From Nannocystis sp. ILAH1 (GTDB taxonomy: Bacteria > Myxococcota_A > Polyangia > Nannocystales > Nannocystaceae): DNA of 11,717 nt. The DNA is taken from NCBI RefSeq assembly GCF_026626585.1, contig NZ_JAPNKD010000018.1, positions 1 through 11,717 of the forward strand, read 5' to 3'. Within the stretch, counting starts at the first letter, position 1. The number at the start of each line of letters is the position of its first letter. The notes below the pieces were generated by a model. That model was given only the letters and a program-made list of their open reading frames with translations, searched no databases and was not told the DNA's origin. Positions 1-11,561 of this stretch are shown one piece after another. Position numbers and translations under genes: made by a program.

Positions 1-448
1 GCACGCTCAGCTGCACGCTGCCGGTCTGGAGGTCGTTGAGGTCGGTGATGCCCGAGGCCTCGTGGACCATCATGCAGCGCGGGCTCTTCTGCAGGCCGGG
101 GACGAGCGCGACCACCGGGGCGCCCTGGGCCCGCGCGAGCAGGATCTCGCTGGCGTCGGCGATGCCGAACTGGACGCGACCCGCGGCCACCTGCGGCAGG
201 ACCGGGGCGTCGGGCCGCCCGGGCACGAGCTCGACGTCGAGGCCCTCTTCCTTGTAGTAGCCGTGGACGAGGGCGGCGAAGTAGCCGCCGTGCTCGACCT
301 CGGGGAACCAGTTGAGGGCGATCCGCACCTGCTGCGAGTCCTGCTGGCGGCCGCAGGTGACGAGCAGCAAGCCGAGGCAGGCGACGAGCAGGCGGACGAG
401 GGCGCCGAACCGCGGGCGCGGCGGGACCGGTCGGAGCGGAGCGCGCAT
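1..448 (-). CDS. ABC transporter substrate-binding lipoprotein, NMT1/THI5 (SsuA/TauA/ThiY-like) family. Only the N-terminal ~149 aa are present; the gene continues past the left edge.
   Basis: My translation of the minus strand from the ATG at 448-446 gives MRAPLRPVPPRPRFGALVRLLVACLGLLLVTCGRQQDSQQVRIALNWFPEVEHGGYFAALVHGYYKEEGLDVELVPGRPDAPVLPQVAAGRVQFGIADASEILLARAQGAPVVALVPGLQKSP... There is no stop before position 1. The N-terminus has a basic n-region, a hydrophobic h-region and lipobox-like LVAC/LVTC. The segment LNWFPEVEHGGYFAALVHGYYKEEGLDVEL matches the N-terminal signature of the NMT1/THI5 periplasmic-binding family (LNWxP...GYFKExGLD). Third codon positions are GC-rich. The ORF is missing from the supplied track, probably because it has no in-window stop. 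Confidence 0.6.
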   Translation of the reverse strand, partial: MRAPLRPVPPRPRFGALVRLLVACLGLLLVTCGRQQDSQQVRIALNWFPEVEHGGYFAALVHGYYKEEGLDVELVPGRPDAPVLPQVAAGRVQFGIADASEILLARAQGAPVVALVPGLQKSPRCMMVHEASGITDLNDLQTGSVQLSV

Positions 449-513
449 GCCGGAAGCGTACACCCGAGCGCCACGGACGCACCAGCGGCCTCGACCGTGC
501 CACGGGGCGCATC

Positions 514-577
514 CATGGGGGCATGGTCTCGAGGACATGAATAAAAGAGCATGTCCTCGGGGACATGTGAAGTGTGG
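514..577. repeat. CATG-phased 14-bp tandem array, copy A. CATG at 514, 522, 536, 550, 564; four units are exactly 14 bp.
   Basis: Read directly. Units are CATGGTCTCGAGGA / CATGAATAAAAGAG / CATGTCCTCGGGGA / CATGTGAAGTGTGG. The 10-bp spacers are variants of the palindrome TCCTCGAGGA. The array lies between the reductase stop (719) and the substrate-binding gene start (448). Confidence 0.7.
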
Positions 578-718
578 CGTCCGGCGGGCAGTGCGAGGCA
601 GAAGCTCGCGGGCTCGCGCGGCGGAGCTCCGCGAAGACGGTCTCTCGCGGCGTGGTGCGCTTCCCCGCAGGTGAGTGCGACCCGACCGGAGCGCGGCACG
701 TGGGCTCCGCCCGCCGGT

Positions 719-1768
719 TCAGGCGACGGGGATCGGCGGCGGGACGATGCTGTCGGGCTGGCCGCCGGCGATCCGCGGGCGGCTGCTCTCGACCTGCTGG
801 TGCGGGGTGCCGAGGGCGATCGCGCTGGCGGCGTCGAGGCGGGCGAGCTGGGCCGGCGCGAGCTCGAGGGTGAGCGCGGCGAGGGCGGCGTCGAGATGTG
901 GGCGGGTGCGCGGGCCGAGGATGGGGATCCGCGCGGTCGTGGAGCGATCGGCGTGGGCCAGCGACCAGGCGAGGGCGACCTGGGTCGGGGCGACGCCGGC
1001 CTCGGCGGCGACTGCGACCACGGCGTCGAGGATGCTGGTCTCGCGCGCGGTCTTCTCGGTGTGGACGAGCATGCCGAGGCCGGTGAGGCGGCCCTCGTCG
1101 CTGGTGCGGTACTTGCCGGTGAGGAAGCCGCCGCCGAGCGGCGACCACAGGGCCGCGCCGAGCCCCAGCGCCTCGGCCATCGGCAGCAGCTCGCGCTCCC
1201 CGGTGCGCTCGACCAGGCTGTGCTCGATCTGCACGCCCGCGAGCGGGGTCCACCCGCGCAGCTCGGCGATCGCGTCGCCTCGCGCGACCCGCCAGGCGGG
1301 GAAGTTCGAAAGGCCGCCGTAGAGGATCTTGCCGGCCCGCGCGAGGTCGTCGAGGCCGCGCACGATCTCATCGATCGGGGTCAGGCCGTCGGGGAAGTGG
1401 ACCCAATACAGCTCGATGCGGTCGGTCTTGAGCCGGCGCAGGCTGGCCTCGAGCGCGGCGATCATGGTCTTGCGGCTGTTGCCGGTGGCGTGCAGGCCGC
1501 CCCCGACGCCGAGGGTGTACTTGCTGGCGACGACGAAGCGGTCGCGCTCGGCCGCGAGGAACTCGCCGAGCAGTTGCTCCGACTGGCCGACCTGGTAGGT
1601 GTCGGCGGTGTCGATGAAGTTGCCGCCCGCCTCGGCGTAGGCGTCGAAGATCCGCCGCGCCTCGGCGGGCTCGCTGCCGTGGCCCCAACCAGTGCCGAAG
1701 TTGCCGGTGCCGAGGGCGAGCTCGGAGACGCGTAAGCCTGTGCGACGACCGAATGTCCTGTACCGCAT
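719..1768 (-). CDS. Aldo/keto reductase (AKR superfamily, NADPH-dependent oxidoreductase)
   Basis: 349-aa ORF. The N-terminus MRYRTFGRRTGLRVSELALGTGNFG is the classic AKR start. Catalytic tetrad candidates are D/Y in FIDTADTYQ, K in VVASKY and H in WVHFPD. Third codon positions are GC-rich. AGGAG sits about 6 nt upstream of the ATG, read as reverse complement at 1774-1778. The overlapping ORFs 70..1371(-), 551..1735(+) and 675..1322(+) are low-complexity alternate frames. Confidence 0.85.
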   Translation of the reverse strand: MRYRTFGRRTGLRVSELALGTGNFGTGWGHGSEPAEARRIFDAYAEAGGNFIDTADTYQVGQSEQLLGEFLAAERDRFVVASKYTLGVGGGLHATGNSRKTMIAALEASLRRLKTDRIELYWVHFPDGLTPIDEIVRGLDDLARAGKILYGGLSNFPAWRVARGDAIAELRGWTPLAGVQIEHSLVERTGERELLPMAEALGLGAALWSPLGGGFLTGKYRTSDEGRLTGLGMLVHTEKTARETSILDAVVAVAAEAGVAPTQVALAWSLAHADRSTTARIPILGPRTRPHLDAALAALTLELAPAQLARLDAASAIALGTPHQQVESSRPRIAGGQPDSIVPPPIPVA

Positions 1769-1775
1769 CGTGTGC

Positions 1776-1830
1776 TCCTGAGGTGATTTTTAGATTATGG
1801 ACGTCATATGGAATCGGCAAGGGGATGGCG
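1776..1830. promoter_or_regulatory. AT-rich divergent promoter region between the reductase (-) and the MFS gene (+). It contains a direct repeat TATGGA(1796-1801)/TATGGA(1807-1812) and the GACGTC/CATATG palindromes.
   Basis: A local drop in GC (tgatttttagattatggacgtcatatggaatcgg) in a ~70% GC background, lying between divergently oriented genes. No -10/-35 consensus is asserted. Confidence 0.35.
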
Positions 1831-1895
1831 CGTGAGTTCGGTTGAATCGGGTCGGGCGGATCCGCGCGGCGAGGGCTTGCGATCCGGAAATTATT

Positions 1896-1912
1896 CGTTC
1901 AATGATTGAACG
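1896..1912. promoter_or_regulatory. Perfect 17-bp palindrome CGTTCAAT-G-ATTGAACG. Candidate operator for the HxlR-type regulator, or another dimeric wHTH repressor, abutting the MFS start codon.
   Basis: Read directly: 8-bp inverted arms with a 1-bp centre. It is AT-rich and lies immediately 5' of the ATG at 1914. HxlR/MarR-type regulators bind palindromes of this size near the genes they control. Confidence 0.5.
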
Positions 1913-1913
1913 C

Positions 1914-3278
1914 ATGGAGATGCGTCTGTCCCCGTTGGTCGTGGCCAGCCTGGCCGTGTTCGCGGTGTTCCTCGACACGACGGTGCTGTTCGTGGCGTTC
2001 CCGTCGATCGCGGCGACGTTCCCGGCGGTGCCGACGGCCGAGCTGTCGTGGGTGCTGAACGCGTACACGATCGTGTTCGCGGCCGCGCTGGTGCCGTTCG
2101 GGCGGCTCGCCGATCGCTGGGGGCATCGGGCGATGTTCCTGGCCGGGTCGATCGGATTCACCCTGGCGTCGCTGCTGTGCGCGGCGGCGCCGACTCCGGG
2201 GCTGCTGGTGGCCGCGCGCGTGCTGCAGGCGGCCGGCGGCGCGGCGCTGGTGCCTTCGTCGCTGGCGCTGGTGATGCGGGCGACGCCGCGCGAGAAGCTG
2301 CCGGTGGCGCTGGCGGTGTGGGGCGCGACGGGGGCGGTGGCCGGGGCGGTCGGGCCGACGCTCGGCGCGGCGCTGATCGAGGCGTGCGGCTGGCGCTGGG
2401 TGTTCGCCATCAACCTGCCGGTCGGGCTGGTGACTGTGCTGCTCGGGCGCCGGCGACTGGCCGAGTCACGCGACCCGGACAGCGTGCTGCCGGCGCCGCT
2501 CGGGGTGGTGCTGCTGGTGCTCGCGGCGGTGTTGATCACTCTGGCGCTGGTGCTCGGCGAGGCGTGGGGCTGGACGTCGCAACGGACCGCGGCGACTCTG
2601 GTGGCCGGCCTGGCGACCCTGGCGGTGTTCGTGCTCCATCAGGCGCGCACGCGGGCGCCGACGATCGATCTGTCGCTGTTCGCGGCGAGCAACTTCCGCT
2701 GGGCCAACGCGGCGACGCTGACGTTCGGCGCGGCGTTCACTGCGATGTTCCTGGCCAGCGTCCTGTTCCTCACCGCGGTGTGGGACTGGTCGATCCTCGC
2801 GGCGGGCTTCGGCGTGGCGCCCGGGCCGCTGCTGGTGGCGGTGCTGTCACCGCGGTTCGGGCGGCTGGCGGCGCGGATCGGCCAGCGACCGCTGCTTATC
2901 GTCGGCGGGCTGTCGTTCGCGCTCGGAGGGCTGTGGCGCCTGCTGATGCTGTCGGCCGAGGTCGACTACGCGATCGACTATCTGCCGTCGATGCTGCTGA
3001 CGGGGACGGGGGTGGCGCTGTGCCTGCCGCAGCTGTCGAGCGTGGTCGGCCAGGCGCTGCCGGCCAATCGCCTCGGGGTCGGCGGGGCGGTCCACCAGGC
3101 GCTGCGCCAATTCGCGGGGACGCTCGGGGTGGCGCTGGCGATCGGGCTGACTGCCGGGGCGAGCGGGCCGGCCGACGCGCTGGCGCGGTTCGACCGGGTG
3201 TGGTGGGTGATGATCGCCGGCGGCTTGGCGACCGCGCTGTGCTCGCTGCCCCTTCGGACAGGTCCGGCCCGGGCGTGA
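1914..3278 (+). CDS. MFS transporter, DHA2 (EmrB/QacA-like 14-TMS drug:H+ antiporter) family
   Basis: TM1 is LSPLVVASLAVFAVFLDTTVLFVAFPSIAATF. Motif A is GRLADRWGHR. Antiporter motif C is GAVGPTLGAALIE. There are many hydrophobic spans. The track ORF begins at 1842, but codons 1881-1913 have A/T-rich third positions and overlap the palindrome, so I prefer the ATG at 1914 (MEMRLSP...). The start is uncertain; 1842, 1902 and 1920 are all possible. Confidence 0.8.
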   Translation: MEMRLSPLVVASLAVFAVFLDTTVLFVAFPSIAATFPAVPTAELSWVLNAYTIVFAAALVPFGRLADRWGHRAMFLAGSIGFTLASLLCAAAPTPGLLVAARVLQAAGGAALVPSSLALVMRATPREKLPVALAVWGATGAVAGAVGPTLGAALIEACGWRWVFAINLPVGLVTVLLGRRRLAESRDPDSVLPAPLGVVLLVLAAVLITLALVLGEAWGWTSQRTAATLVAGLATLAVFVLHQARTRAPTIDLSLFAASNFRWANAATLTFGAAFTAMFLASVLFLTAVWDWSILAAGFGVAPGPLLVAVLSPRFGRLAARIGQRPLLIVGGLSFALGGLWRLLMLSAEVDYAIDYLPSMLLTGTGVALCLPQLSSVVGQALPANRLGVGGAVHQALRQFAGTLGVALAIGLTAGASGPADALARFDRVWWVMIAGGLATALCSLPLRTGPARA

Positions 3279-3291
3279 TACAACGAGCCTC

Positions 3292-3741
3292 GTGCGGCGC
3301 AAGCGACTCGACCGGATGCAGTGCTCGATCGCGCGGGCGCTCGACGTCGTCGGCGACCCGTGGACGCTGCTGCTCGTGCGCGACGCGCTGCTCGGGGTGA
3401 CGCGCTTCGAGGCGTTTCAGGCGCGGCTGCAGATCCCGCGGGCCACGTTGACGGCCCGCCTGGAGCACCTGGTCGCCGCGGGAATCCTCGAGCGCCGGTC
3501 CTATCAGGATCATCCGCCGCGCGAGGAGTACGTGCCGACGGCGAAGGGCCGGGGGCTGCGGCCGGTGATCGTGACTCTGATGCAGTGGGGCGACGAGTTC
3601 GCCCGCGAAGACCCACCGCCGACGGTGCTCGAGGACGCCGCCACGGGGCTGCCGATCGAGCCGGTGCTGGTCGACCGCGTCAGCGGGGCGCCGCTCACCG
3701 CGCTGCGGGTGCGCGCGGTCGGACCGGTGGTGCCGCGGTGA
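3292..3741 (+). CDS. HxlR-family (MarR-like winged-helix) transcriptional regulator. Probably a thiol-based electrophile/redox sensor.
   Basis: MQCSIARALDVVGDPWTLLLVRDALLGVTRFEAFQARLQIPRATLTARLEHLVAAGILERR matches the HxlR signature C-x-I/V-A-R-x-L-D-x-x-G-D-x-W-T, with an N-proximal Cys as in YodB/HypR/QorR-type regulators. The start may be the ATG at 3292 or at 3319. There is a ~45-aa C-terminal extension. Confidence 0.8.
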   Translation: MRRKRLDRMQCSIARALDVVGDPWTLLLVRDALLGVTRFEAFQARLQIPRATLTARLEHLVAAGILERRSYQDHPPREEYVPTAKGRGLRPVIVTLMQWGDEFAREDPPPTVLEDAATGLPIEPVLVDRVSGAPLTALRVRAVGPVVPR

Positions 3742-3752
3742 GGTTGAGGGAG

Positions 3753-3822
3753 CATGCTCGTTCGAGCATGTCCTCGAGTGCATGAAGGATGGGGCATGTC
3801 GGAGGAGACATGCGCGAAAGGT
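3753..3822. repeat. CATG-phased 14-bp tandem array, copy B. Five units: CATG at 3753, 3767, 3781, 3795, 3809, each exactly 14 bp apart.
   Basis: Units are CATGCTCGTTCGAG / CATGTCCTCGAGTG / CATGAAGGATGGGG / CATGTCGGAGGAGA / CATGCGCGAAAGGT. The array lies between convergent genes (HxlR stop at 3741, permease stop at 3822-3824). The last unit ends at the permease stop codon. Confidence 0.75.
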
Positions 3823-4610
3823 CAGGAGACTGCGAGCTCGCGGCCGCGCCAGCGGCGGAGGGCGAGCTCGCCGAGCAGGGCGACGAGGCCGAACAGCAGC
3901 AGGCCGAGCAGGGTGGCGGTGAAGATCGCGGCGAACAGGTAGGCGGTCTGCAGGCGGCCGGAGGTCTGGAGGATGAGGGCGCCGAGGCCGAGCTCGTCGG
4001 CGCCGAAGCCGGCGAAGAACTCGCCGACGATGGCGCCGATGACCGCGAGGCCGCCGCTGATCTTGGCGCCGGCGACGAAGTAGGGCAGCGAGCCGGGCAG
4101 GCGCAGCTTGAGCAGCAGCTGCAGGCGCGAGGCGTCGCTCATGGCGAACAGCTCGAGCAGCTGCGGGTCGACGCGGACGAGGCCGGTGGTGCCGTTGGTG
4201 ATGATCGGGAAGACGCTGAGGATCGCGGCGGTGAGGACGACGCTCTGCAGGCCGGTGCCGAACCACACGACGATCAGCGGGGCGACGGCGACGATCGGGA
4301 CGGTCTGCAGGAAGATCGCGTACGGGTAGAGGCTGCGCGCCGCCGTCTGCGACTGCGAGAACAGGACTGCTACCAGGCCGCCGACGACGAGGCTGGCCCC
4401 GAGGCCGCCGAGCGCGCCGAGGGCGGTCAGCAGCGCGGCCTGGGCGAGCTCGCCGACGTGGGCTGCGGCCTCGCGTGCGACCTCGGCCGGGGTCGGCACG
4501 AGGTAGGCCGGCAGCGCCAGGGCGCTGCAGGCGAGCTGCCACAGGCCGAGGAGGGCGAGGAAGACGAGGAGCGGCGGGAGCGCGGCTCGAGCGGCCGATG
4601 CGAGGGACAT
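3822..4610 (-). CDS. ABC transporter permease, nitrate/sulfonate/bicarbonate (SsuC/TauC-like) family
   Basis: 262-aa polytopic hydrophobic protein (…LLTALGALGGLGASLVVGGLVAVLF…IFLQTVPIVAVAPLIVVWFG…) with a BPD-transporter-like loop around GLVRVDPQLLELFAMSDASRLQLLLKLRLPGSLPYFVAGAKIS. It sits adjacent to an ABC ATPase on the same strand. Confidence 0.8.
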   Translation of the reverse strand: MSLASAARAALPPLLVFLALLGLWQLACSALALPAYLVPTPAEVAREAAAHVGELAQAALLTALGALGGLGASLVVGGLVAVLFSQSQTAARSLYPYAIFLQTVPIVAVAPLIVVWFGTGLQSVVLTAAILSVFPIITNGTTGLVRVDPQLLELFAMSDASRLQLLLKLRLPGSLPYFVAGAKISGGLAVIGAIVGEFFAGFGADELGLGALILQTSGRLQTAYLFAAIFTATLLGLLLFGLVALLGELALRRWRGRELAVS

Positions 4611-4779
4611 GCGAGGAGGCAGAGAGGAGAGGAGGAGGCGAGGTGCCGGCGCCAGGCGAGGGAGCGGGGAGATGTGGGGAGGAGGAAGGCCGGCTGCGGC
4701 GGCGGGGCGGGGATCGGCCGGGAGAGCTGTCCCGAGGGACTTGTGTGGAGGGACAGGTGCGAAGGGACAGGCGGAGAGG
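4611..4779 (-). other. 169-nt intra-operon spacer. It is ~80% purine on the + strand, so the transcribed minus-strand RNA is a polypyrimidine tract. It contains short direct repeats and there is no Shine-Dalgarno before the permease ATG.
   Basis: On the + strand: gaggaggcagagaggagaggaggaggcgagg … gagggacaggtgcgaagggacaggcggagagg, with AGGGACAGG(T/C)G repeated. The inverted repeat GTCCC-GA-GGGAC lies at 4729-4740. The GGAGG motifs are on the non-coding strand relative to the flanking genes. Confidence 0.5.
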
Positions 4780-5622
4780 TCAGGTCCGAACAGGCAGGTC
4801 CGAAGGGTCAGGCGGGGCGGCGGCGCGCAAGTGGGCGCGGACGTCGGCGGCGATCGCCGCGAACTCGGGGCTGCCGATCAGGGCGGCGCGGCGCGGGCGC
4901 GGCAGGGCGATCGGGATGTCGGCGACCACGCGGCCGGGGCGGCCGGAGAGGACGATGACGCGGTCGCCGAGCAGGACCGCTTCGGCGACGCTGTGGGTGA
5001 CGGCCAGGGCGGTGAAGCGGTCGCGCTCCCACAGGCGCAGCAGCTCGTCGTTGAGCCGCTCGCGCGTGAGCTCGTCGAGGGCGCCGAACGGCTCGTCGAG
5101 CAGGAGCAGCTCGGGCCGGGTGACGAGGGCGCGGGCCAGGGAGGCCCGCATCTTCATGCCGCCCGAGAGCGCAGTCGGCGGGGCGGCGGCGAACTCCGAC
5201 AGGCCGACGAGCGCGAGCGCGGCGTCGGCGGCGGTGGTCTGCTCGGCTTTCGGGGCGCGCGCGAGCTCGAGCGGGAGGCGGACGTTGGCGTGCAGGCTGC
5301 GCCACGGGAGCAGGGTCGGATCCTGAAACACGAAGGCGACCGCGCGGCGCGCCCGGGCCCGCTCGGGGGCCTCGCCCGCGACTGTGATGGTGCCCGCGCT
5401 GGCGGGCGCGAGGCCGGCTGCCACGCGCAGGAAGGTCGACTTGCCGCAGCCCGAGGGGCCGATGAGGGCGAGCAGCTCGCCGCGGCGGACGACGAGGTCG
5501 AGGCCGCTCAGGGCCTGCACGCCGCCCGCGAACTGCACGCCGAGGCCGCGGGCCTCGATGTGCGGGGCTGGGGCCGGCTCGGTCACGCGGCGGACGCTAA
5601 CACAGCAGCGGACGCGACGCAC
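4780..5622 (-). CDS. ABC transporter ATP-binding protein (SsuB/TauB-like)
   Basis: Walker A is GPSGCGKST. The ABC signature is LSGGMKMRASLARAL. Walker B is LLLLDEPFGALD. The H-loop is AVTHSV. The start may be the ATG at 5622 or, more likely, the GTG at ~5585 (VTEPAPAPHIEARGLGV…). Confidence 0.8.
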   Translation of the reverse strand: MRRVRCCVSVRRVTEPAPAPHIEARGLGVQFAGGVQALSGLDLVVRRGELLALIGPSGCGKSTFLRVAAGLAPASAGTITVAGEAPERARARRAVAFVFQDPTLLPWRSLHANVRLPLELARAPKAEQTTAADAALALVGLSEFAAAPPTALSGGMKMRASLARALVTRPELLLLDEPFGALDELTRERLNDELLRLWERDRFTALAVTHSVAEAVLLGDRVIVLSGRPGRVVADIPIALPRPRRAALIGSPEFAAIAADVRAHLRAAAPPDPSDLPVRT

Positions 5623-5706
5623 AGGCAGCCGGACGGCTTCGTGGTGACGGCGATCGGCGACACGGCGCGACGGACGAGCGAGGCGCTCGGCGTCCGGGTG
5701 GCGGCG

Positions 5707-6492
5707 TCAGGCCTTGCGGGGGCGCGAGCGGCGGGCGCGGGCGGGCTTGGCCGGGGGCGCTGGGGGCTCGGGCTCGGGCTCGTCTGCCTCTTCGGGCATG
5801 TCCTCGAGGTCCGGTGCTTCCGCACCTGTCGTTTCGGACATGTCCTCGGAGCCCTCCTCGGCCTCGGGCTCGGGCCCGGCCTCGGGCGGGTCGGACGGGG
5901 CCGCCTCGAGGCCGCTGTTGCGGAGGGTGCGGGGCGGCAGCAGCTCGGGCTCGCTGACGACCTTCTTGGCCAGGAAGATGGCGGCGTCGATCTGGGAGAA
6001 GCTGCGGGCGCGGTAGAACTGGAGCGCGCGCTTGTTGTTGGCGGCGACCTCGAGGACGAGGTGCGTGCAGCCGCGCACGCGGGCGAGGTGCTCGAGCTGC
6101 TCGATGACGAAGCTGCCGATCCCGCGGCCCTGGAAGTCGGGGTGGATGGCGATCTCCTCGACGAACAGCGGGCGCATGTCGCGGCTCTCGAAGTAGCGCT
6201 CGTTGATCCAATTGTCGGAGCCGATGACCTCGTAGGCGCACTCGGCGTAGCCGACGATCACCGGGGCGTCGCCCTCGTGGATCTCGAACAGCAGCTGCTC
6301 GATGCCCTCCTCCTCGTAGATCTCGAGGAAGCGGGTCTTGGTGCGGGGGCGCTGGTACTCGACGGTCTCGCGGTTGACCGAGCGGAACACGCGCTTGAGG
6401 AACTCCCACACCTTGTTGAGGTCGCGGCGGTGGATCCGGCGGACACGGATGGTCGGCTCCGTGACGGCGGGCGCGGGCTTGCGGGAGGCCAC
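5707..6492 (-). CDS. GNAT-family N-acetyltransferase (~175-aa core) with an ~85-aa acidic/Pro-rich low-complexity C-terminal tail that ends in a basic KPARARRSRPRKA
   Basis: The acetyl-CoA binding motif is QGRGIGSFVIEQLEHLA, followed by the GNAT core LVLEVAANNKRALQFYRARSF. The start is GTG (rc of cac at 6490-6492). The tail is ...EAGPEPEAEEGSEDMSETTGAEAPDLEDMPEEADEPEPEPPAPPAKPARARRSRPRKA. The gene is co-oriented with and immediately upstream of the ABC ATPase. Confidence 0.75.
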   Translation of the reverse strand: MASRKPAPAVTEPTIRVRRIHRRDLNKVWEFLKRVFRSVNRETVEYQRPRTKTRFLEIYEEEGIEQLLFEIHEGDAPVIVGYAECAYEVIGSDNWINERYFESRDMRPLFVEEIAIHPDFQGRGIGSFVIEQLEHLARVRGCTHLVLEVAANNKRALQFYRARSFSQIDAAIFLAKKVVSEPELLPPRTLRNSGLEAAPSDPPEAGPEPEAEEGSEDMSETTGAEAPDLEDMPEEADEPEPEPPAPPAKPARARRSRPRKA

Positions 6493-6542
6493 GGCCGAAG
6501 TCTAGCACCGCCGAAGGGCCGCTCGTCCGCCTTGCGTGTCTG

Positions 6543-6552
6543 CGCACGTGCG
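6543..6552. promoter_or_regulatory. Perfect 10-bp palindrome CGCACGTGCG in the 75-bp divergent promoter region between the GNAT gene (-) and the beta-helix lipoprotein gene (+)
   Basis: Read directly. It is followed by GGCATGCTCGG, which is similar to the GAGCATGCTC motif of the CATG arrays. Confidence 0.3.
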
Positions 6553-6567
6553 TGGCATGCTCGGCCG

Positions 6568-8388
6568 ATGCGTCCCCGCGCCGCTGCGTCCGCTGCCGAG
6601 CCCGCGCGCCGGCGTGGCCGACGTCCCGGCGCGGGCCTGCGCCAGATCGGGCTCGGGTGCGTGGCCGTCGCGCTCGCTTGCGGACCGGACGAGCAGAAGT
6701 CGCAGAAGGTCGAGGCGAACCCGAACATGCCCGACCGGGTGCAGGCGCCTGCGCCCGCGCCGCGCCGGCCGGAGGTCAGCGACTGCCCCGAGGCTCTCCG
6801 CGAGCCGGAGCAGGTCGACCGCGTGATCGGCTCGGCCTGCAAGTCGGTGACGGTCCACCCGGGCTACCGGATCGAGAACGGGTCGCTGACGATCGAGGCA
6901 GGGGTGACCCTGCAATTCATGCCCGACGCCGAGCTGGCGGTCGGCTTCGAGCGCCCGGCGACGCTGCACGTGCGCGGCACGCCCGAGTCGCCGGTCCGCT
7001 TCACGGCCGCGGGCGATCAGGCCAAGCCGGGGGCGTGGAAGGGGATCGCGCTGTACGACCACGCCGACGGCTCGGAGATCGCCGGGCTCGTGCTCGAGTT
7101 CGCCGGTACGGACCTGCGCGGGGCGATCTACGTGCAGGCGACCGACGTGAAGATCGACGGCTCGACGGTGCGCGACAGCCAGAACGTGGCGGTCCACGTC
7201 ACGTCGAAGGGCCACGTCAGCAGCTTCAAGGGCAACCGGCTCGAGCGCGTGAGCTCGCCGGCGCTGCTGCTGCCGGCCCGCTCGGCCGGGTCGGTGACGC
7301 CCGACAACACGTTCCCGCCCGACTCGGTGATCCACGTGCTCGGCGGGATGATCCGCGAACGCGCCCGCTGGGACGTGCCGAAGGTGCCGTTCGTGATCGG
7401 CGGGGTGATCGAGATCGAGGGCCCCGACGACAAGCACGAGGCGATGCTCGAGCTGGCCCCGGGGACAGTCCTGAAGTTCGACGACGACGCGTACTTCACG
7501 GTCGGCTACGACCACCCGGCGGCGCTCATCGCCGAGGCGGCGGGCAAGGAGCCGATCGTGCTGACGTCGGCGACGCGCGAGACGTCGCACGCGTGGCGCG
7601 GGGTCAACCTCTACCGCTCGGCCACCGCGAGCTTCAGCAACGTGGTGTTCGAGTACGGCGGCCAGCGTTCCGACCGCGGGGTGGTCTACGCCAACAACGA
7701 GGCGCGCCTCAGCGCGAAGGGCTGCACGTTCCGCGACAACGGCGGCGGGGTGACGCTCCAGGGCGCGAACGTCCGCCTCGGCGAGTTCCGCGACAACACG
7801 TTCGAGCGCTCGCACCCGGCCTTCGACGTGAGTCCGCAGCTGTTCGGGATGATCCCGGCCGAGAACAAGCTCGACGCGGCGACGACGGTCCAGGTCGAGG
7901 GCGGCGAGGTCAGCAAGGACGCGGTGTGGCACGACTTCGGGGTGCCGATCGAGGTCAAGCGCCCGGTCTCGGTCGACAACCAGGCGACGCTGACGATCCG
8001 CGCCGGCGCCAAGCTGCGCGTCCACGACGGCTTCTCGCTCGGGGTCGGCGAGTTCGGCGGCGGCTCGCTGCGCGTCGAGGGCACGGCCGAGCGCCCGGTG
8101 CAGATCTTCGGGACCACCGACCGCCGCGGGACGTGGGACGCGATCCGCCTGTACGAGAAGGCCCGCGGCAACCTGTTCGAGCACGTGCAGCTGCGCAACG
8201 CCGGCGGCGAGGGGGCGATCAACGTCGCCATGGGCGTCGACGCTGTGGTCCGCGACGTGTCCTGCGTGCGCTGCTTCAGCCCGACGCTGACGTGGGCCTG
8301 CGGCTCGCGCGTGACGTCCGAGCGCGTCACGGGCGGAGCCGAGACGCCGGCGGCGACGCTGCCGCCGTTCGGCTGCGATCCGTCGTGA
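6568..8388 (+). CDS. Secreted putative lipoprotein of 606 aa, built from three tandem ~180-aa right-handed beta-helix-like modules, with a Cys-rich C-terminus
   Basis: The ATG at 6568 gives MRPRAAASAAEPARRRGRRPGAGLRQIGLGCVAVALACGPDEQKS, a basic n-region, an h-region and lipobox-like ALAC. There are three internally repeated A modules: LTIEAGVTLQFMPDAELAVGFERPATLHVRGTPESPVRFTAAGDQAKPGAWKGIALYDHADGSEIAGLVLEFAG / LELAPGTVLKFDDDAYFTVGYDHPAALIAEAAGKEPIVLTSATRETSHAWRGVNLYRSATASFSNVVFEYGG / LTIRAGAKLRVHDGFSLGVGEFGGGSLRVEGTAERPVQIFGTTDRRGTWDAIRLYEKARGNLFEHVQLRNAGG. Each is followed by a B module with Asn/Asp ladder-like tracts (GCTFRDNGGGVTLQGANVRLGEFRDNTFERS). The last 45 aa contain 5 Cys. The 5' 2 kb of track ORF 4609..8388 is an antisense artifact. 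The real gene is the 3' third, in the same frame. Confidence 0.7.
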   Translation: MRPRAAASAAEPARRRGRRPGAGLRQIGLGCVAVALACGPDEQKSQKVEANPNMPDRVQAPAPAPRRPEVSDCPEALREPEQVDRVIGSACKSVTVHPGYRIENGSLTIEAGVTLQFMPDAELAVGFERPATLHVRGTPESPVRFTAAGDQAKPGAWKGIALYDHADGSEIAGLVLEFAGTDLRGAIYVQATDVKIDGSTVRDSQNVAVHVTSKGHVSSFKGNRLERVSSPALLLPARSAGSVTPDNTFPPDSVIHVLGGMIRERARWDVPKVPFVIGGVIEIEGPDDKHEAMLELAPGTVLKFDDDAYFTVGYDHPAALIAEAAGKEPIVLTSATRETSHAWRGVNLYRSATASFSNVVFEYGGQRSDRGVVYANNEARLSAKGCTFRDNGGGVTLQGANVRLGEFRDNTFERSHPAFDVSPQLFGMIPAENKLDAATTVQVEGGEVSKDAVWHDFGVPIEVKRPVSVDNQATLTIRAGAKLRVHDGFSLGVGEFGGGSLRVEGTAERPVQIFGTTDRRGTWDAIRLYEKARGNLFEHVQLRNAGGEGAINVAMGVDAVVRDVSCVRCFSPTLTWACGSRVTSERVTGGAETPAATLPPFGCDPS

Positions 8389-8480
8389 GGCGAGCTGTCG
8401 ACGGGCGGCGCTCGGGCGGCGCGGGTGAGAGCTCGCGAGACAAGAGGTAATTTTTGAGCCGTAAAGGCTGGTTTGGGCGG

Positions 8481-8506
8481 ACAAAGGTACATATATGCAC
8501 CTTTGT
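8481..8506. other. 26-bp near-perfect AT-rich palindrome ACAAAGGT-a-CATATATG-c-ACCTTTGT, followed by TTTCC, inside a ~70-bp low-GC island (8440-8510). Possible bidirectional terminator hairpin or protein-binding site.
   Basis: Read directly. 24 of 26 positions are self-complementary. The island lies between convergent genes (lipoprotein stop at 8388, kinase stop at 8643). A UUUUU run at 8451-8455 precedes a small hairpin AGCC-GUAAA-GGCU at 8458-8470. Confidence 0.35.
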
Positions 8507-8573
8507 TTCCGGCCGCGAGCGTCGGTGCATGAGCAGGCGAGAGCGCGAGTGGGATGGATGATGAGCGCGCTGG

Positions 8574-8647
8574 CATGACGCATGGAGCATGTCGACGAGG
8601 ACATGCTCCGAAGAGCATGCTCCTATGGACATGTTCTTCGAGTCATG
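8574..8647. repeat. CATG-phased array, copy D. CATG at 8574, 8581, 8588, 8602, 8616, 8630, 8644, with spacing 7, 7, 14, 14, 14, 14.
   Basis: The sequence is GCATGACGCATGGAGCATGTCGACGAGGACATGCTCCGAAGAGCATGCTCCTATGGACATGTTCTTCGAGTCATGG. It contains GAGCATGTC-GACGAG-GACATGCTC, a 9-bp perfect inverted repeat around a 6-bp centre. The final CATG overlaps the kinase stop codon (TGA = rc of 8643-8645). In-phase ATGs also occur at 8561 and 8554. Confidence 0.75.
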
Positions 8648-11393
8648 GCCTCGAGGGCAGGTGCGTCCGCGGGCCGGCGCGGGTCAGCAGGCGCTCGCTG
8701 GCGGCCAGCGGGCGGGCGAAGCTGGCGCCGGCGCTGCGGTAGAAGGCGAGCGCGGCCCCGAGGTGCGGGCGAGCGGCGGCCACGGCGGGAGGCGTGGCGG
8801 TCAGCAGGGCCTCGGCGAGGGTGCGGTGGGCGCGAGCGAGGCGCGGGGCCCAGTGCGGGTCGTCGGCGGCGAGGACGGTGAGCTCGGCGACCGCGGCGGC
8901 CAGCGGGACGCGGGCCTCGAGCGGTCGGCCGCGGACGAGCAAGTTCTGGCCGAGGACCAGGCGCAGCTCGGCGATCTCCTCGCTCGACCAGGTGGCGTCC
9001 GGCATGCGCGCGAGGGTGGCCTGGAGGTGCTCGACGGCGGTGTTGTCGTCGACCAGACCGGCGAGGCCGCGGTAGCCGGCGAGCAGGGTCGCCTCGGGCC
9101 CGAACAGGCGCGTGCCGGACAGCTCCGACAGCTCGGCGGCGGCGCGGAAGACCGAGGCGGCGTCGTCGTCATAGCCGATCTCGGTGGCGGCGCGGCCGAG
9201 GTGGAAGAGGCACCGCGTGCGGCGCACGAGGTCGTCGGGCAAGAATCGCTCGAGCGCGACGCAGCCGGTCTGGAGGATCGACCAGGCCTCGCCCGGCTCG
9301 GCCAGCTGGGCGGCGGTGATCCGCGCCTCGATCGTGGCGGGGTGGACGACGCCGAGCTCGGCGTCGAAGATCTCGAGGGCGCGCGCGAGGAGGTCGTCGC
9401 GCGCGGCGCCCGGCTCGGTGACGGAGGCGAGGTTGAGCAGGGTGTAGCCGACGTCGCGGTGGCCGGCCGACAGGGCGCCCTGGCGCACGCTCAGGGCCTC
9501 GGTGAAGTAGCGCCGCGCCTCGGCCGAGTTGCGCTGGGCGAGGTTGGCGACGCCGAGGTTGTGCAGGACGAGGCCGCGCAGGGCCTCGGGGGCGGCGCCG
9601 CGAGAGGCGAGGGCGAGGGCGAGGGGCTCGTCGGCGAGGGCGCGAGCGACCATCTCGGGCCGGCGGCTGGCGGCGACGATCCGCGAGGCCACGGCCTCGG
9701 CCGCGATCGCGTCGCCGCGCGACTCGATGCCGCTGCGCATGGCCCGGGTCAACCACTCGAGCTCCTGGCCGGTCTCCTCGGAGGTGTTGAGCGAGAGCCG
9801 CCCGCGCAGCAGCGCGACCTCGGCCCGCAGCGGGGCGTAGCCGATCTGCTCGGCGGCGGCCTCGATGTCGACGGCCTGATCGACCGCGTCGTGGATCCGC
9901 CCGAGCTTGGCCAGCGCCTCGGCCCGCGCCATGTGATTGCGCAGGTCGGCGACCCGCTCGCCGAGCTCGGGGTCGTCGGGCGCGGGCGGCTCGGCCTTGA
10001 GGAAGGCGAGCTCGTGACAGGCGGAGGGCGGCACGAGATCGCTGGCGGCGCCGAGCGCCCGCGGGGCCATGTCCATGTCGGCGATCGAGAGGGCCTTGAC
10101 GGTCTCGTCGAAGGCGTCGCGCCGGCGATCGAGGCAGCGGCGCTGGCGATCGAGCAAGGCCTCGGTGTAGCGGCCCTGGTGCTCGGCGAGGCAAGTGTCG
10201 CGGTGGTTCTCGGCCCACGAGGCGGCGAAGCGATCGAGCTTGTCGGCGACCCTGGGCCACAGCACCGCGGCGTAGTTGGGCGCCGCGTCGCGCAAGGCGG
10301 TGGCGACGGCGTTGCGCTGGGCCGGGCCCCACACGCGGGCGATGTCGGCGTCGGCGTCGGCACACGGGGACTCGGCGGCGGCCTCGGGCACGAAGGCGAG
10401 GCCGGCGGCGCCGGCGGTGAGGGCGAGCGCCAGCGCGGCGCCGACGACCCGCCAGGTCCGCCCGCGCGACGGGACGAGCGCGCCGAGCAGCGCCTCCATC
10501 GACGGGTAGCGGTCGCGCGGCTCGGTCTTGAGGCCGCGCATGAGGGCAGCGATCAGCCACGCGGGCACGCCGTGGTTGCGCGGCGGAGGCCGCAGGTGGC
10601 CGTTGGTGATCGCGTGCGAGAGCGCGAGGATGTCGTTGCCGGCGAACGGCGGCAGGCCGAACAAAGCCTCGTAGAGGGCGACGCAGAAGCTGAACTGGTC
10701 GGAGGCCGGCTCGGCCGCGCCGCCGCGCCAGCGCTCGGGCGCGAGATAGGCGGGCGTGCCGAGGATGTCCTCGCCGTCGTCGCCGACGCGGATCCGCATG
10801 CTCTGACTGGCGCCCGAGGACAGGTCGAGCAGGCCCGGGCGATCGGGGGTAGCGCGCACGAGCCCGAAGTCGAGGACGCAGGCGCGGCCGGTGGCGTCGA
10901 TCATGACGTTGCCGGGCTTGAAGTCGCGGTGCAGGAGGCCCACCTCGTGGGCGGCGGCGAGGCCTCGCGCGGCCTGAGTGAATACGTCGTGGATCTCGCG
11001 CCAGGTCCGCGGCCCGGCGGCCAGCCAGGCCGGCAGCGCGGCGCCGCGGATCAGCTCCATGGCGACGTAGACCTGGCCCTTGATGACCCCGGCCTCGAGC
11101 ACGGTGATGACATTGGGGTGGCTGACGCCGGCCATCGCCTGAGCCTCGCGCAGCAGCCGGATCTGGCCCTTCGACCCGGTGTCGGGCAGGACCTTGATCG
11201 CGACCTTGCGGTCGAGGAGCTCGTCGTAGGCGGCGTAGACGACCGCCGTGCCGCCGCCGAGGCGCTCGAGGATGGTGAACCGACCGAGCCGCGGAGGCAG
11301 GGTCGCAGGGACCGAGATCGCGACACCAGGCAGCGACTGCGTGATGTCCACCGAGATCCCCGACGCGTCCGTATCGGGAATGATGACGCTCAT
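8643..11393 (-). CDS. Membrane-anchored Ser/Thr protein kinase: an N-terminal Hanks kinase domain, a single TM helix, and a ~570-aa C-terminal TPR-like/helical-repeat sensor region
   Basis: The kinase domain has the beta3 Lys in VAIKVL, catalytic HRDFKPGNVMI, DFG (VLDFGLV), GTPAYLAPE, and a glycine loop LGGGTAVVY. The TM segment is RVVGAALALALTAGAAGLAFV. After the TM helix there are 4 Cys and TPR-like stretches (LHNLGVANLAQRNSAEARRYFTEALSV). The track start is a TTG at 11435. I prefer the ATG at 11393 (MSVIIPDTD…). The 766-aa ORF 9169..11469(-) is an Arg-rich alternate-frame artifact. Confidence 0.8.
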   Translation of the reverse strand: MSVIIPDTDASGISVDITQSLPGVAISVPATLPPRLGRFTILERLGGGTAVVYAAYDELLDRKVAIKVLPDTGSKGQIRLLREAQAMAGVSHPNVITVLEAGVIKGQVYVAMELIRGAALPAWLAAGPRTWREIHDVFTQAARGLAAAHEVGLLHRDFKPGNVMIDATGRACVLDFGLVRATPDRPGLLDLSSGASQSMRIRVGDDGEDILGTPAYLAPERWRGGAAEPASDQFSFCVALYEALFGLPPFAGNDILALSHAITNGHLRPPPRNHGVPAWLIAALMRGLKTEPRDRYPSMEALLGALVPSRGRTWRVVGAALALALTAGAAGLAFVPEAAAESPCADADADIARVWGPAQRNAVATALRDAAPNYAAVLWPRVADKLDRFAASWAENHRDTCLAEHQGRYTEALLDRQRRCLDRRRDAFDETVKALSIADMDMAPRALGAASDLVPPSACHELAFLKAEPPAPDDPELGERVADLRNHMARAEALAKLGRIHDAVDQAVDIEAAAEQIGYAPLRAEVALLRGRLSLNTSEETGQELEWLTRAMRSGIESRGDAIAAEAVASRIVAASRRPEMVARALADEPLALALASRGAAPEALRGLVLHNLGVANLAQRNSAEARRYFTEALSVRQGALSAGHRDVGYTLLNLASVTEPGAARDDLLARALEIFDAELGVVHPATIEARITAAQLAEPGEAWSILQTGCVALERFLPDDLVRRTRCLFHLGRAATEIGYDDDAASVFRAAAELSELSGTRLFGPEATLLAGYRGLAGLVDDNTAVEHLQATLARMPDATWSSEEIAELRLVLGQNLLVRGRPLEARVPLAAAVAELTVLAADDPHWAPRLARAHRTLAEALLTATPPAVAAARPHLGAALAFYRSAGASFARPLAASERLLTRAGPRTHLPSRP

Positions 11394-11561
11394 GGGACTC
11401 GACCAGTCTTGCACCGACCCGCACACACGCCCCAACCGCGGCGTCGCGAGGCCGATGCGGCGCGTTCAAGCGGCGCCGCCGGCCCGTGGCGCGTGTCCGC
11501 CCGACCGCGACGCGCAGCGGGCGCTAAGCATCGCCTGTCCCAAAGTTCTAAATTGATGTGG

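Follow-up and report, generated by a model that had tools for sequence, protein, structure and literature searches.

The window, as we call the whole 11,717-nucleotide stretch of Nannocystis sp. ILAH1 DNA analysed here, carries a tandem array of short palindromes at the 3' end of a Ser/Thr protein kinase gene. On balance, we favour the view that this array, designated array D, is a copy of a Nannocystis family of REP/BIME-like arrays that would act as bidirectional 3'-end elements, as terminators and/or stabilisers. Arrays A, B and D of the window are assigned on their sequences to one family distributed throughout the genus, with the unit GGRCATGYCC followed by an AT-richer 4-nt spacer. The arrays of this family are tied to gene ends and to convergent junctions especially, as supported by the statistics of their contexts.

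Array D and its genomic setting

As the GC content of the window is 73%, long spurious ORFs are common, and real genes were told apart by frame analysis of third-position GC (GC3) combined with Pfam searches. These analyses identified genes coding for an NMT1-like binding protein (2..448, minus strand), an aldo/keto reductase (719..1768, minus), an MFS transporter (1914..3278, plus), an HxlR regulator (3292..3741, plus, stop codon at 3739-3741), an ABC permease (3822..4610, minus, stop codon at 3822-3824 reading TCA on the plus strand), an ABC ATPase (4780..5622, minus) and a GNAT acetyltransferase (5707..6492, minus). They are followed by a plus-strand gene for a beta-helix protein (~6502..8388), supported by GC3, Pfam and called orthologues of 575-589 aa. 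Its start is uncertain, and it represents the 3' part of a spurious 1259-aa ORF (4609..8388). Convergent with it is the gene of the Ser/Thr protein kinase with TPR repeats (8643..11435, minus; Pfam Pkinase and TPR). The kinase ORF starts with TTG, and the true start is probably ~14 codons downstream, since called orthologues have 916 aa. A Nannocystis pusilla protein matches the kinase with 98% identity, and the window is N. pusilla-like. An exact-sequence look-up with the aldo/keto reductase gave no match.

Array D (8571..8650; all arrays and hairpins are given here without a strand) is composed of six 10-bp units of consensus GGRCATGYCC in a strict 14-bp register, with CATG at 8574, 8588, 8602, 8616, 8630 and 8644. 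The beta-helix and kinase genes converge on a gap of 254 bp, and array D lies on the kinase side of it. There are 44 CATGs in the window, 17 of which fall in three clusters. The pattern CATG-N10-CATG-N10-CATG has nine matches, located at 522-567, 3753-3812 and 8574-8647, and none was obtained in 200 dinucleotide-preserving shuffles of the window. The original prediction had reported seven CATGs spaced 7, 7, 14, 14, 14 and 14 bp apart between 8574 and 8647, and these positions are correct. They had been taken as a mixture of 7-bp and 14-bp phasing, but array D consists of six in-register units and one interloper, a lone off-register CATG at 8581..8584 that accounts for the apparent 7, 7 spacing and is peculiar to the window strain. 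Three results lead to this conclusion. Over 293 kb of Nannocystis DNA, CATG pairs 7 bp apart number 5, which is background level (4.6 expected at random per distance), a CATG at +7 is found in a single one of 230 units, that of array D itself, and the extra CATG has no counterpart at the equivalent position of L001, the closest syntenic locus.

A perfect hairpin is found within array D (8584..8609), with arms GGAGCATGTC (8584-8593) and GACATGCTCC (8600-8609) around a 6-nt loop. Thus, the predicted hairpin is real, but its arms, proposed to be 9 bp long, are 10 nt long and 100% complementary. The hairpin is present in the minimum-free-energy structure of both strands. RNA folding of region 8566-8662 gave -49.3 kcal/mol for the plus strand (z -5.5) and -40.9 kcal/mol for the minus strand (z -3.9), so that the strand-wise folding suggested as a check in the original prediction yields strong folds on both sides. 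The TGA stop codon of the kinase (8643..8645, minus strand) overlaps the last unit as had been proposed, its reverse complement sharing two bases, 'CA', with the CATG at 8644-8647. The similar claim that array B ends on the permease stop was not borne out, as 9 nt separate its last CATG (3809-3812) from that stop (3822-3824).

Array A (519..570) has four units, with CATG at 522, 536, 550 and 564 and an additional CATG at 514, 8 bp out of register. It is located between two minus-strand genes, after the stop of the aldo/keto reductase gene (719) and before the start of the NMT1-like gene (448). Array B (3750..3815) has five units, with CATG at 3753, 3767, 3781, 3795 and 3809, and the convergent HxlR (stop at 3739-3741) and ABC permease genes are separated by a gap that it fills. 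Its fold has an energy of -35.4 kcal/mol (z -4.2), and that of array A has a z of -3.4. Array C (4749..4812) is a variant that follows the 14-bp register (TRF period 14) with CAGG cores, CCTG in the sense orientation. It overlaps the stop of the ABC ATPase gene at the operon-internal junction between ATPase and permease, and its sense strand is without folding potential (z +0.8 and +0.9). Lastly, an isolated hairpin module, TGCCC-CTTC-GGACA (3247..3260), which fits TGYCC-N4-GGRCA, is found at the MFS-HxlR junction, 18 nt before the MFS stop. An orthologous copy is present in the syntenic locus L002, at 18136.

Repeat unit, register and folding

The family statistics were established on Nannocystis loci most of which had been chosen for carrying a five-unit array. 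The position weight matrix of 230 units reads A-M-G-G-R-C-A-T-G-Y-C-C-K-T. The unit is thus a 10-bp palindrome, GGRCATGYCC, with a 4-nt spacer that is free in sequence and fixed in length. The spacers have a GC content of 48%, compared with 72% for the genome, and they are modestly T-rich; their centre is not conserved among the 230 units. In the same matrix no position outside GGRCATGYCC is conserved, and there is no GTAG-type head. The register is sharp, as 209 CATG pairs are 14 bp apart in the 293 kb of Nannocystis DNA, compared with 2 at 13 bp and 4 at 15 bp, and longer distances of 28 and 42 bp occur 138 and 93 times, respectively. The arrays contain between 2 and 7 units.

The original prediction considered CATG as a half-site, but another element stands alone more often. 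The motif TGYCC-Nn-GGRCA was found 76 times with n = 4, 6 times with n = 3, once with n = 5 and never with n = 6. Of the 76 occurrences of TGYCC-N4-GGRCA, 30 have no neighbouring CATGs, compared with 9 of 76 for GGRCATGYCC. The autonomous module is therefore the hairpin TGYCC-N4-GGRCA centred on the 'spacer'. As GGRCA abuts TGYCC without a gap, CATG is the joint between the half-stems of successive modules, recurring every 14 bp. Of the GGRC-NN-GYCC sites, 76 have AT at the joint, 9 have GC and 7 have CG, and thus AT predominates even though a GC joint would pair more strongly. The unit also fits exactly the response-element half-site of p53, RRRCWWGYYY. This is no more than a resemblance; the spacing rule differs, and we know of no p53-family protein in bacteria.

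The mean folding energy of 51 arrays is -29.4 kcal/mol, compared with -15.8 kcal/mol after mononucleotide shuffling. When arrays were reconstructed from the position weight matrix, or units swapped between arrays, the value was -26.9 kcal/mol (z of the real arrays ~-5). The reconstructed arrays being so much closer to the real ones than the shuffled sequences are, it is the palindromic consensus that accounts for most of the folding potential. Nevertheless, neighbouring units are more complementary than the consensus demands, with raised complementarity between the left side of one unit and the right side of the next (L1(k)-R1(k+1), odds ratio 2.9, p = 0.0014) and within-unit symmetry below expectation at the positions flanking CATG (z -3.1). 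The inner Y-R pair of the module showed no covariation (odds ratio 1.35, p = 0.41). Covariation is modest and uneven. The units are nearly palindromic; the asymmetric forms GCATGT and ACATGC are over-represented and tend to alternate, and units resemble each other's reverse complement slightly more at lags 1 and 3 (z only ~2.5). Convergent junctions show 56% complementarity at the variable positions of the stem, and tandem junctions 43%. We used strand asymmetry between G-U and A-C as a test for selection at the RNA level; none was detected in tandem junctions (44 vs 40), and the excess in convergent junctions (97 vs 55) is uninterpretable because the choice of strand there is arbitrary.

Direct similarity between the units of an array is 0.47, compared with 0.48 for random pairs. 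With no raised direct similarity, the arrays are old and not products of recent slippage, and recent tandem duplication was rejected as the origin of the register for the same reason. A scan of region 8200-8900 with consensus promoters and terminators yielded no terminator-like site and no promoter. Stable GC-rich hairpins are present downstream of the stops, and the array hairpins have no U-tract following them. An Rfam scan of the window at E values up to 1 gave two sub-threshold chance matches, neither of them close to an array.

Gene ends, orthologous junctions and taxonomic range

The original prediction placed the arrays at gene ends and convergent junctions, which is supported at the level of the family. 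Based on gene calls that are approximations from GC3 periodicity, 24 of 39 classifiable arrays are in convergent junctions, 13 are in tandem junctions, where they adjoin the upstream stop, and 2, distant from any gene, are nominally in divergent junctions, compared with a background of 36 convergent, 93 tandem and 34 divergent junctions. Arrays typically begin 2-35 nt from a stop, and several abut the stops on both sides or run into them. The overlap with the kinase stop is thus one instance of a general habit. In L001, L002 and L003, for which we used the gene calls of the database, almost every convergent junction bears an array, a two-unit hairpin or CCTGTCC-N4-GACAG hairpins, which are related to the family. 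In two unselected loci, L156 and L157, an array directly follows the ADYC stop in a convergent junction. Among the isolated modules, 20 of 28 are at gene boundaries and about 8 of 28 are apparently within coding sequence.

The original prediction also proposed a comparison of orthologous kinase 3' ends. We analysed the syntenic kinase loci L001, L002 and L003, whose kinases share 98, 90 and 83% protein identity with that of the window, respectively, and found that arrays recur in all three relatives, so that the absence named in the original prediction as a refutation was not observed. In-register units number 2 in L003 and 6 in L002; the window has 6 plus 1 and L001 has 3 plus 6. Flanks and spacers differ among the four kinase 3' ends, but each has a folding z between -4 and -6 on either strand. 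The idea that arrays sit exactly on stop codons survives in part. The overlap is common to the three closest strains, with CCATGA at the kinase stop kept in L001 and L002, but L003 has CCCTGA, and thus there is no precise rule. In L001 we identified a 60-bp tandem duplication (53 of 60 positions identical) that comprises the last 12 codons of the kinase gene and the first two units.

The other arrays of the window behave similarly. Arrays A and B are found in register at the same junctions of L001 and L002, where the surrounding intergenic DNA is deleted or unalignable, and a variant array with CCTG cores in 14-bp register occupies the ATPase-permease junction of the window strain, L001 and L002. 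Arrays are also found at the same junctions in N. exedens and N. punicea. The kinases P0008 and P0012 (51-53% identity) were considered as distant orthologues of the window kinase and rejected, as their neighbourhoods mark both as paralogues; their loci were used just as unselected Nannocystis DNA.

We searched for five CATGs at 14-bp spacing in one genome from each of 185,579 species, which yielded at least 110 loci. Thirty loci from five Nannocystis species are among the matches listed, and in 29 of these the arrays are degenerate, with identities between successive units of 0.4-0.7; the remaining one, L120, is minisatellite-like (0.91). The loci from other taxa among the matches listed are 7- or 14-bp tandem repeats, with unit identities mostly of at least 0.8, an exception being L142, an interrupted 7-bp repeat with unit identity of 0.64. 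No CATG-N10-CATG pair was found in two related metagenome-assembled genomes of 73% GC (Nannocystaceae and Myxococcales bins; 22.7 kb each), compared with a density of ~0.5 per kb in unselected Nannocystis DNA. A similar search of viral sequences for five CATGs at 14 bp gave 42 contigs, mostly with perfect minisatellites. A few phage contigs harbour degenerate direct 'AATWCATGC' arrays, which represent a different kind of element.

Arrays of at least three units number 51 in 272 kb of sampled Nannocystis DNA. The 69 kb that were not selected for arrays contain nine of them, or ~1 per 8 kb, and, extrapolated to a 12-Mb genome, these nine would correspond to arrays numbering of the order of 1,000 or more. 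CRISPR arrays consist of repeats of 23-55 bp with unique spacers of similar length. CRISPR, MITE and integron attC interpretations were all rejected on anatomical grounds, given the 10-bp units and 4-bp spacers of the arrays, the lack of terminal inverted repeats or target duplications and the fixed order of the flanking conserved orthologues. Our literature searches on repeats or palindromes of Nannocystis, on REP or RAYT in myxobacteria and on myxobacterial terminators found no description of the family. It is apparently undescribed and best filed as an element of the REP/BIME kind that is not a member of the REP/BIME family.

Candidate roles of the arrays

The arrays have a number of features in common with the REPs and BIMEs of other bacteria (BIME-2 of Escherichia coli, species-specific REPs of Pseudomonas and Stenotrophomonas). 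REPs are imperfect palindromes that reach hundreds of copies in a genome, and the gene of their cognate RAYT usually has REPs on its flanks. Both are short extragenic palindromes with very many copies per lineage that favour gene 3' ends and convergent junctions, occur in tandem clusters whose copy number varies between loci and strains, and form hairpins from either strand. REPs are frequent between convergent genes and concentrated just downstream of genes (PMC1525189), and a model REP of E. coli functions as a terminator as well as an mRNA stabiliser (bioRxiv 10.64898/2026.03.23.713779). In the tandem clusters of BIME-2 the units alternate in orientation, and TnpA-REP requires a GTAG-type tetranucleotide at the foot of the hairpin (PMC3333891). 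Unlike REPs, which are ~35-40 bp long, the Nannocystis units have 10 bp (14 with the spacer), are each nearly palindromic and carry no GTAG-type head. Their register is exactly 14 bp, whereas BIME linkers vary in length, and the units within an array are highly diverged, in contrast with the well-conserved tandem BIME copies of a given locus.

Another likeness is with bidirectional intrinsic terminators, including a proposed class without a U-tract. U-tract-less ('I-shaped' or tandem-hairpin) terminators have been proposed for high-GC bacteria. The Nannocystis arrays similarly provide GC-rich tandem hairpins right after stop codons, and they are symmetric, so that both convergent transcripts fold. 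They differ from canonical intrinsic terminators by the absence of a U-rich tract 3' of the hairpin. Furthermore, terminators do not constitute a sequence family, whereas these arrays share the GGRCA/TGYCC core, the 4-nt loop and the fixed period throughout the genome.

From their context, the arrays would function as follows. Folding into tandem or nested hairpins in transcripts of both strands, they would halt or weaken transcription running on into the converging gene and/or hold up 3'-exonucleases, like the REPs and BIMEs of enterobacteria and pseudomonads. The terminator or insulator role put forward in the original prediction is thus plausible, and it now has comparative support. In addition, a sequence-specific protein or a templated copying mechanism appears to constrain the family. 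We invoke such a factor because folding alone leaves the 14-bp register, the AT joint and the non-folding CCTG variant unexplained. The fixed 4-nt loop and the fixed 4-nt linker between hairpins are stricter than RNA hairpins require.

The same features could be taken as evidence for sites on double-stranded DNA. The 14-bp module TGYCC-N4-GGRCA would then be the operator of a putative dimeric, Nannocystis-specific protein, and abutting phased sites would assemble this protein into a helical array at gene ends, the hairpins being a by-product of palindromic operators. Such an assembly might be a transcription roadblock or insulator, a topological barrier (gyrase or SMC-type) or a nucleoid-organising site. 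Tandem operators or iterons bound by dimeric proteins include the metboxes of MetJ, the heptads of omega, the centromere repeats of ParR and ParG and the FNR-type boxes, and a 5-N4-5 geometry is that of classical dimeric operators, for instance FNR-type boxes. Like these, the Nannocystis arrays combine a short conserved core with a spacer whose length, but not sequence, is fixed, and their sites abut in exact register as 5-N4-5 inverted repeats. The sharpness of the register (209 pairs at 14 bp, 2 at 13 and 4 at 15) and of the half-site gap (76 with N4, 6 with N3, 1 with N5 and 0 with N6), the fixed length of a spacer of free sequence, the preference for an AT joint over the more stable GC or CG, the register kept by array C without folding of its sense strand, the modules within coding sequence and the lack of covariation of the inner stem pair all fit operators. 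In contrast, operators do not predict the low dyad symmetry within units next to CATG (z -3.1), the raised complementarity of adjacent units or the better folding of real arrays than of those built from the matrix (z ~-5). With a rotation of ~120 degrees per 14-bp period, successive sites do not share a face of the helix, and a 3'-end location is unusual for operators. Known arrays of this type number one or a few per replicon, at promoters or centromeres, whereas the Nannocystis arrays, by extrapolation, are of the order of 1,000 or more and at gene 3' ends. We consider this operator interpretation rather unlikely. A protein reader in general we rate as unlikely to rather unlikely; we keep it in consideration because loop and linker are exactly 4 nt long, the joint is AT, the CCTG variant does not fold and the inner pair does not covary. 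In its strongest form, which we deem unlikely, the arrays would be genome-wide gene-end 'punctuation' read by a putative dedicated Nannocystis protein and not primarily RNA structures.

It seems doubtful that the arrays represent mobile DNA of the REPIN/BIME type, selfish or near-neutral and with no host function of their own. In such a scenario, a putative RAYT (a domesticated Y1 transposase) or a similar enzyme acting on single-stranded DNA would recognise the hairpin and disseminate the arrays, which would build up at gene ends merely because insertion is tolerated there. In favour, the family is genus-specific with a very high copy number (order 1,000 or more arrays per genome by extrapolation), descent or recognition explains the conserved core better than pairing does, and unit numbers do differ between strains, as illustrated by the 60-bp duplication of L001. 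BIME-2 elements are also tandem arrays of alternating REPs with locus-variable copy number (PMC3333891). Nevertheless, the same junctions are occupied from 98% down to 83% protein identity, with the register kept while the flanks diverge; direct similarity within arrays is not raised, and thus there has been no recent amplification; no conserved GTAG-like head was found; and the presence of a family element in nearly all convergent junctions examined looks like selection rather than tolerance. Searches by tblastn with IS200 and RayT queries gave no match in 316 kb, or ~2.6% of one genome, a share too small to be informative. The alternative formulated in the original prediction, a CATG half-site with a 7-bp half-period recognised on alternating faces or by a dimer with 7-bp reach, is suggested by the CATGs of array D at 8574, 8581 and 8588. 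It is very improbable given the background frequency of the 7-bp distance (5 vs 4.6), the single +7 CATG among 230 units, the lack of an off-register CATG in L001 and the non-conserved spacer centre. As for a chance cluster or an ordinary minisatellite that arose by recent replication slippage, TRF does report a 14-bp period with 2.6 copies, and the units of L120 are near-identical. We regard its probability as negligible, because none of 200 shuffles gave a triple match, neighbouring units are 40-70% identical, direct similarity is the same within and between arrays, and the family is found at gene ends across the sampled DNA of five Nannocystis species.

Because the family belongs to one genus, as far as sampled, comparative genomics should allow both its origin and its partner protein to be traced. 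An exact register and core that are kept while the unit drifts make the arrays an unusually clean case for the wider question of whether RNA folding, a protein reader or a copying enzyme maintains REP-like repeats. If the punctuation hypothesis is true, nearly every convergent junction would be a site of factor-dependent bidirectional termination, insulation or topological blockage, which would give bacteria an equivalent of the protein-mediated terminators mTERF and Reb1, and operons would contain the CCTG variant as a tuned form that does not terminate. If the arrays are routine 3'-end signals, they would allow a sequence-defined annotation of transcription-unit boundaries in the 11-13 Mb genomes of these myxobacteria, which are mined for natural products, and they might provide ready-made bidirectional insulator parts for their engineering.

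Variant and single-hairpin members of the array family

At the junction between the ABC ATPase and permease genes, internal to the operon, the window harbours array C (4749-4812), a 14-bp phased array in which CAGG cores (CCTG on the sense strand) replace CATG. The CAGG/CCTG core is present in every unit, and the array is retained in all three strains, i.e. the window and the syntenic Nannocystis loci L001 (~16755-16800) and L002 (~16500-16600), whose kinases share 98% and 90% protein identity, respectively, with that of the window. Folding of the sense strand was absent for this array (z +0.8 and +0.9). Array C may be a purposely 'disarmed' version of the Nannocystis array family.

At least eight copies of a related hairpin, CCTGTCC-N4-GACAGCC, crowd one convergent junction (L001 4353-4851; L002 4589-4802), within which a ~75-bp tandem duplication was also found. 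These copies are out of the 14-bp register, showing that single-hairpin subfamilies exist in the array family. Isolated modules occur as well, and about 8 of the 28 detected in the sampled Nannocystis DNA are apparently inside coding sequences. One such lone module, TGCCC-CTTC-GGACA, lies at 3247-3260 of the window, within the MFS coding sequence and about 18 nt from its end; it is kept in L002 (18136).

Likenesses outside Nannocystis

Degenerate direct repeats with an exact 14-bp spacing were found in the phage contigs L010, L012, L032, L041 and L043, and also in L005, L029 and L034. Their unit, AATWCATGC followed by five variable nucleotides, is non-palindromic, and they resemble iteron-type protein-binding arrays. 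They represent another kind of element than the Nannocystis arrays. The Nannocystis unit GGRCATGYCC exactly matches the half-site consensus of eukaryotic p53, RRRCWWGYYY, a likeness that we take to be a coincidence.

Conserved and strain-specific intergenic segments

Directly upstream of the start of the NMT1/THI5-like gene (448), ~50 nt are near-identical in the three strains (window 440-500; L001 ~21090-21140; L002 ~20780-20825), whereas the remainder of this intergenic region is diverged or deleted among them. No Rfam match was obtained for this segment, which is probably a promoter, a leader or a regulatory RNA. At 4611-4650 the plus strand carries an extended run of purine-rich sequence, CT-rich on the sense strand, which abuts the permease start codon on its upstream side and is kept in both L001 and L002.

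The intergenic region containing array D, at the 3' end of the Ser/Thr kinase gene (8571-8650), also harbours an AT-rich island (8440-8510) common to the window and L001 only, being found neither in L002 nor in L003, the locus with 83% kinase identity. Within the island, ACAAAGGTACATA and TATGCACCTTTGT form an inverted repeat of 13 nt that precedes TTTCC, and a GGTAATTTTT motif is also present. Candidate identities for the island are a dedicated terminator of the beta-helix gene, a small RNA and what is left of an insertion.

Gene layout and a duplication around the arrays

Most of a 1259-residue plus-strand ORF (4609-8388) is an artefact of the high GC content. The actual genes beneath it code for the ABC ATPase and a GNAT protein, both on the minus strand, and for a beta-helix protein in the final ~1.8 kb of the ORF.

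In L001, a 60-bp tandem duplication (12716-12835; 53 of 60 positions identical) covers the last 12 kinase codons and the first two array units. This points to slippage or unequal recombination from one array unit to another, extending into the coding sequence. The ABC transporter genes of the window (2-5622) are split, with a HxlR-MFS-aldo/keto reductase block located between those for the ATPase and permease and that for the NMT1-like binding protein. Arrays B (3750-3815) and A (519-570) flank this block on its two sides. The corresponding region of L003 (5319-8427) is devoid of the ATPase, permease, HxlR, MFS and reductase genes, with a single gene coding for a 233-residue protein in their place. 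The arrays may delimit recombined or inserted segments.
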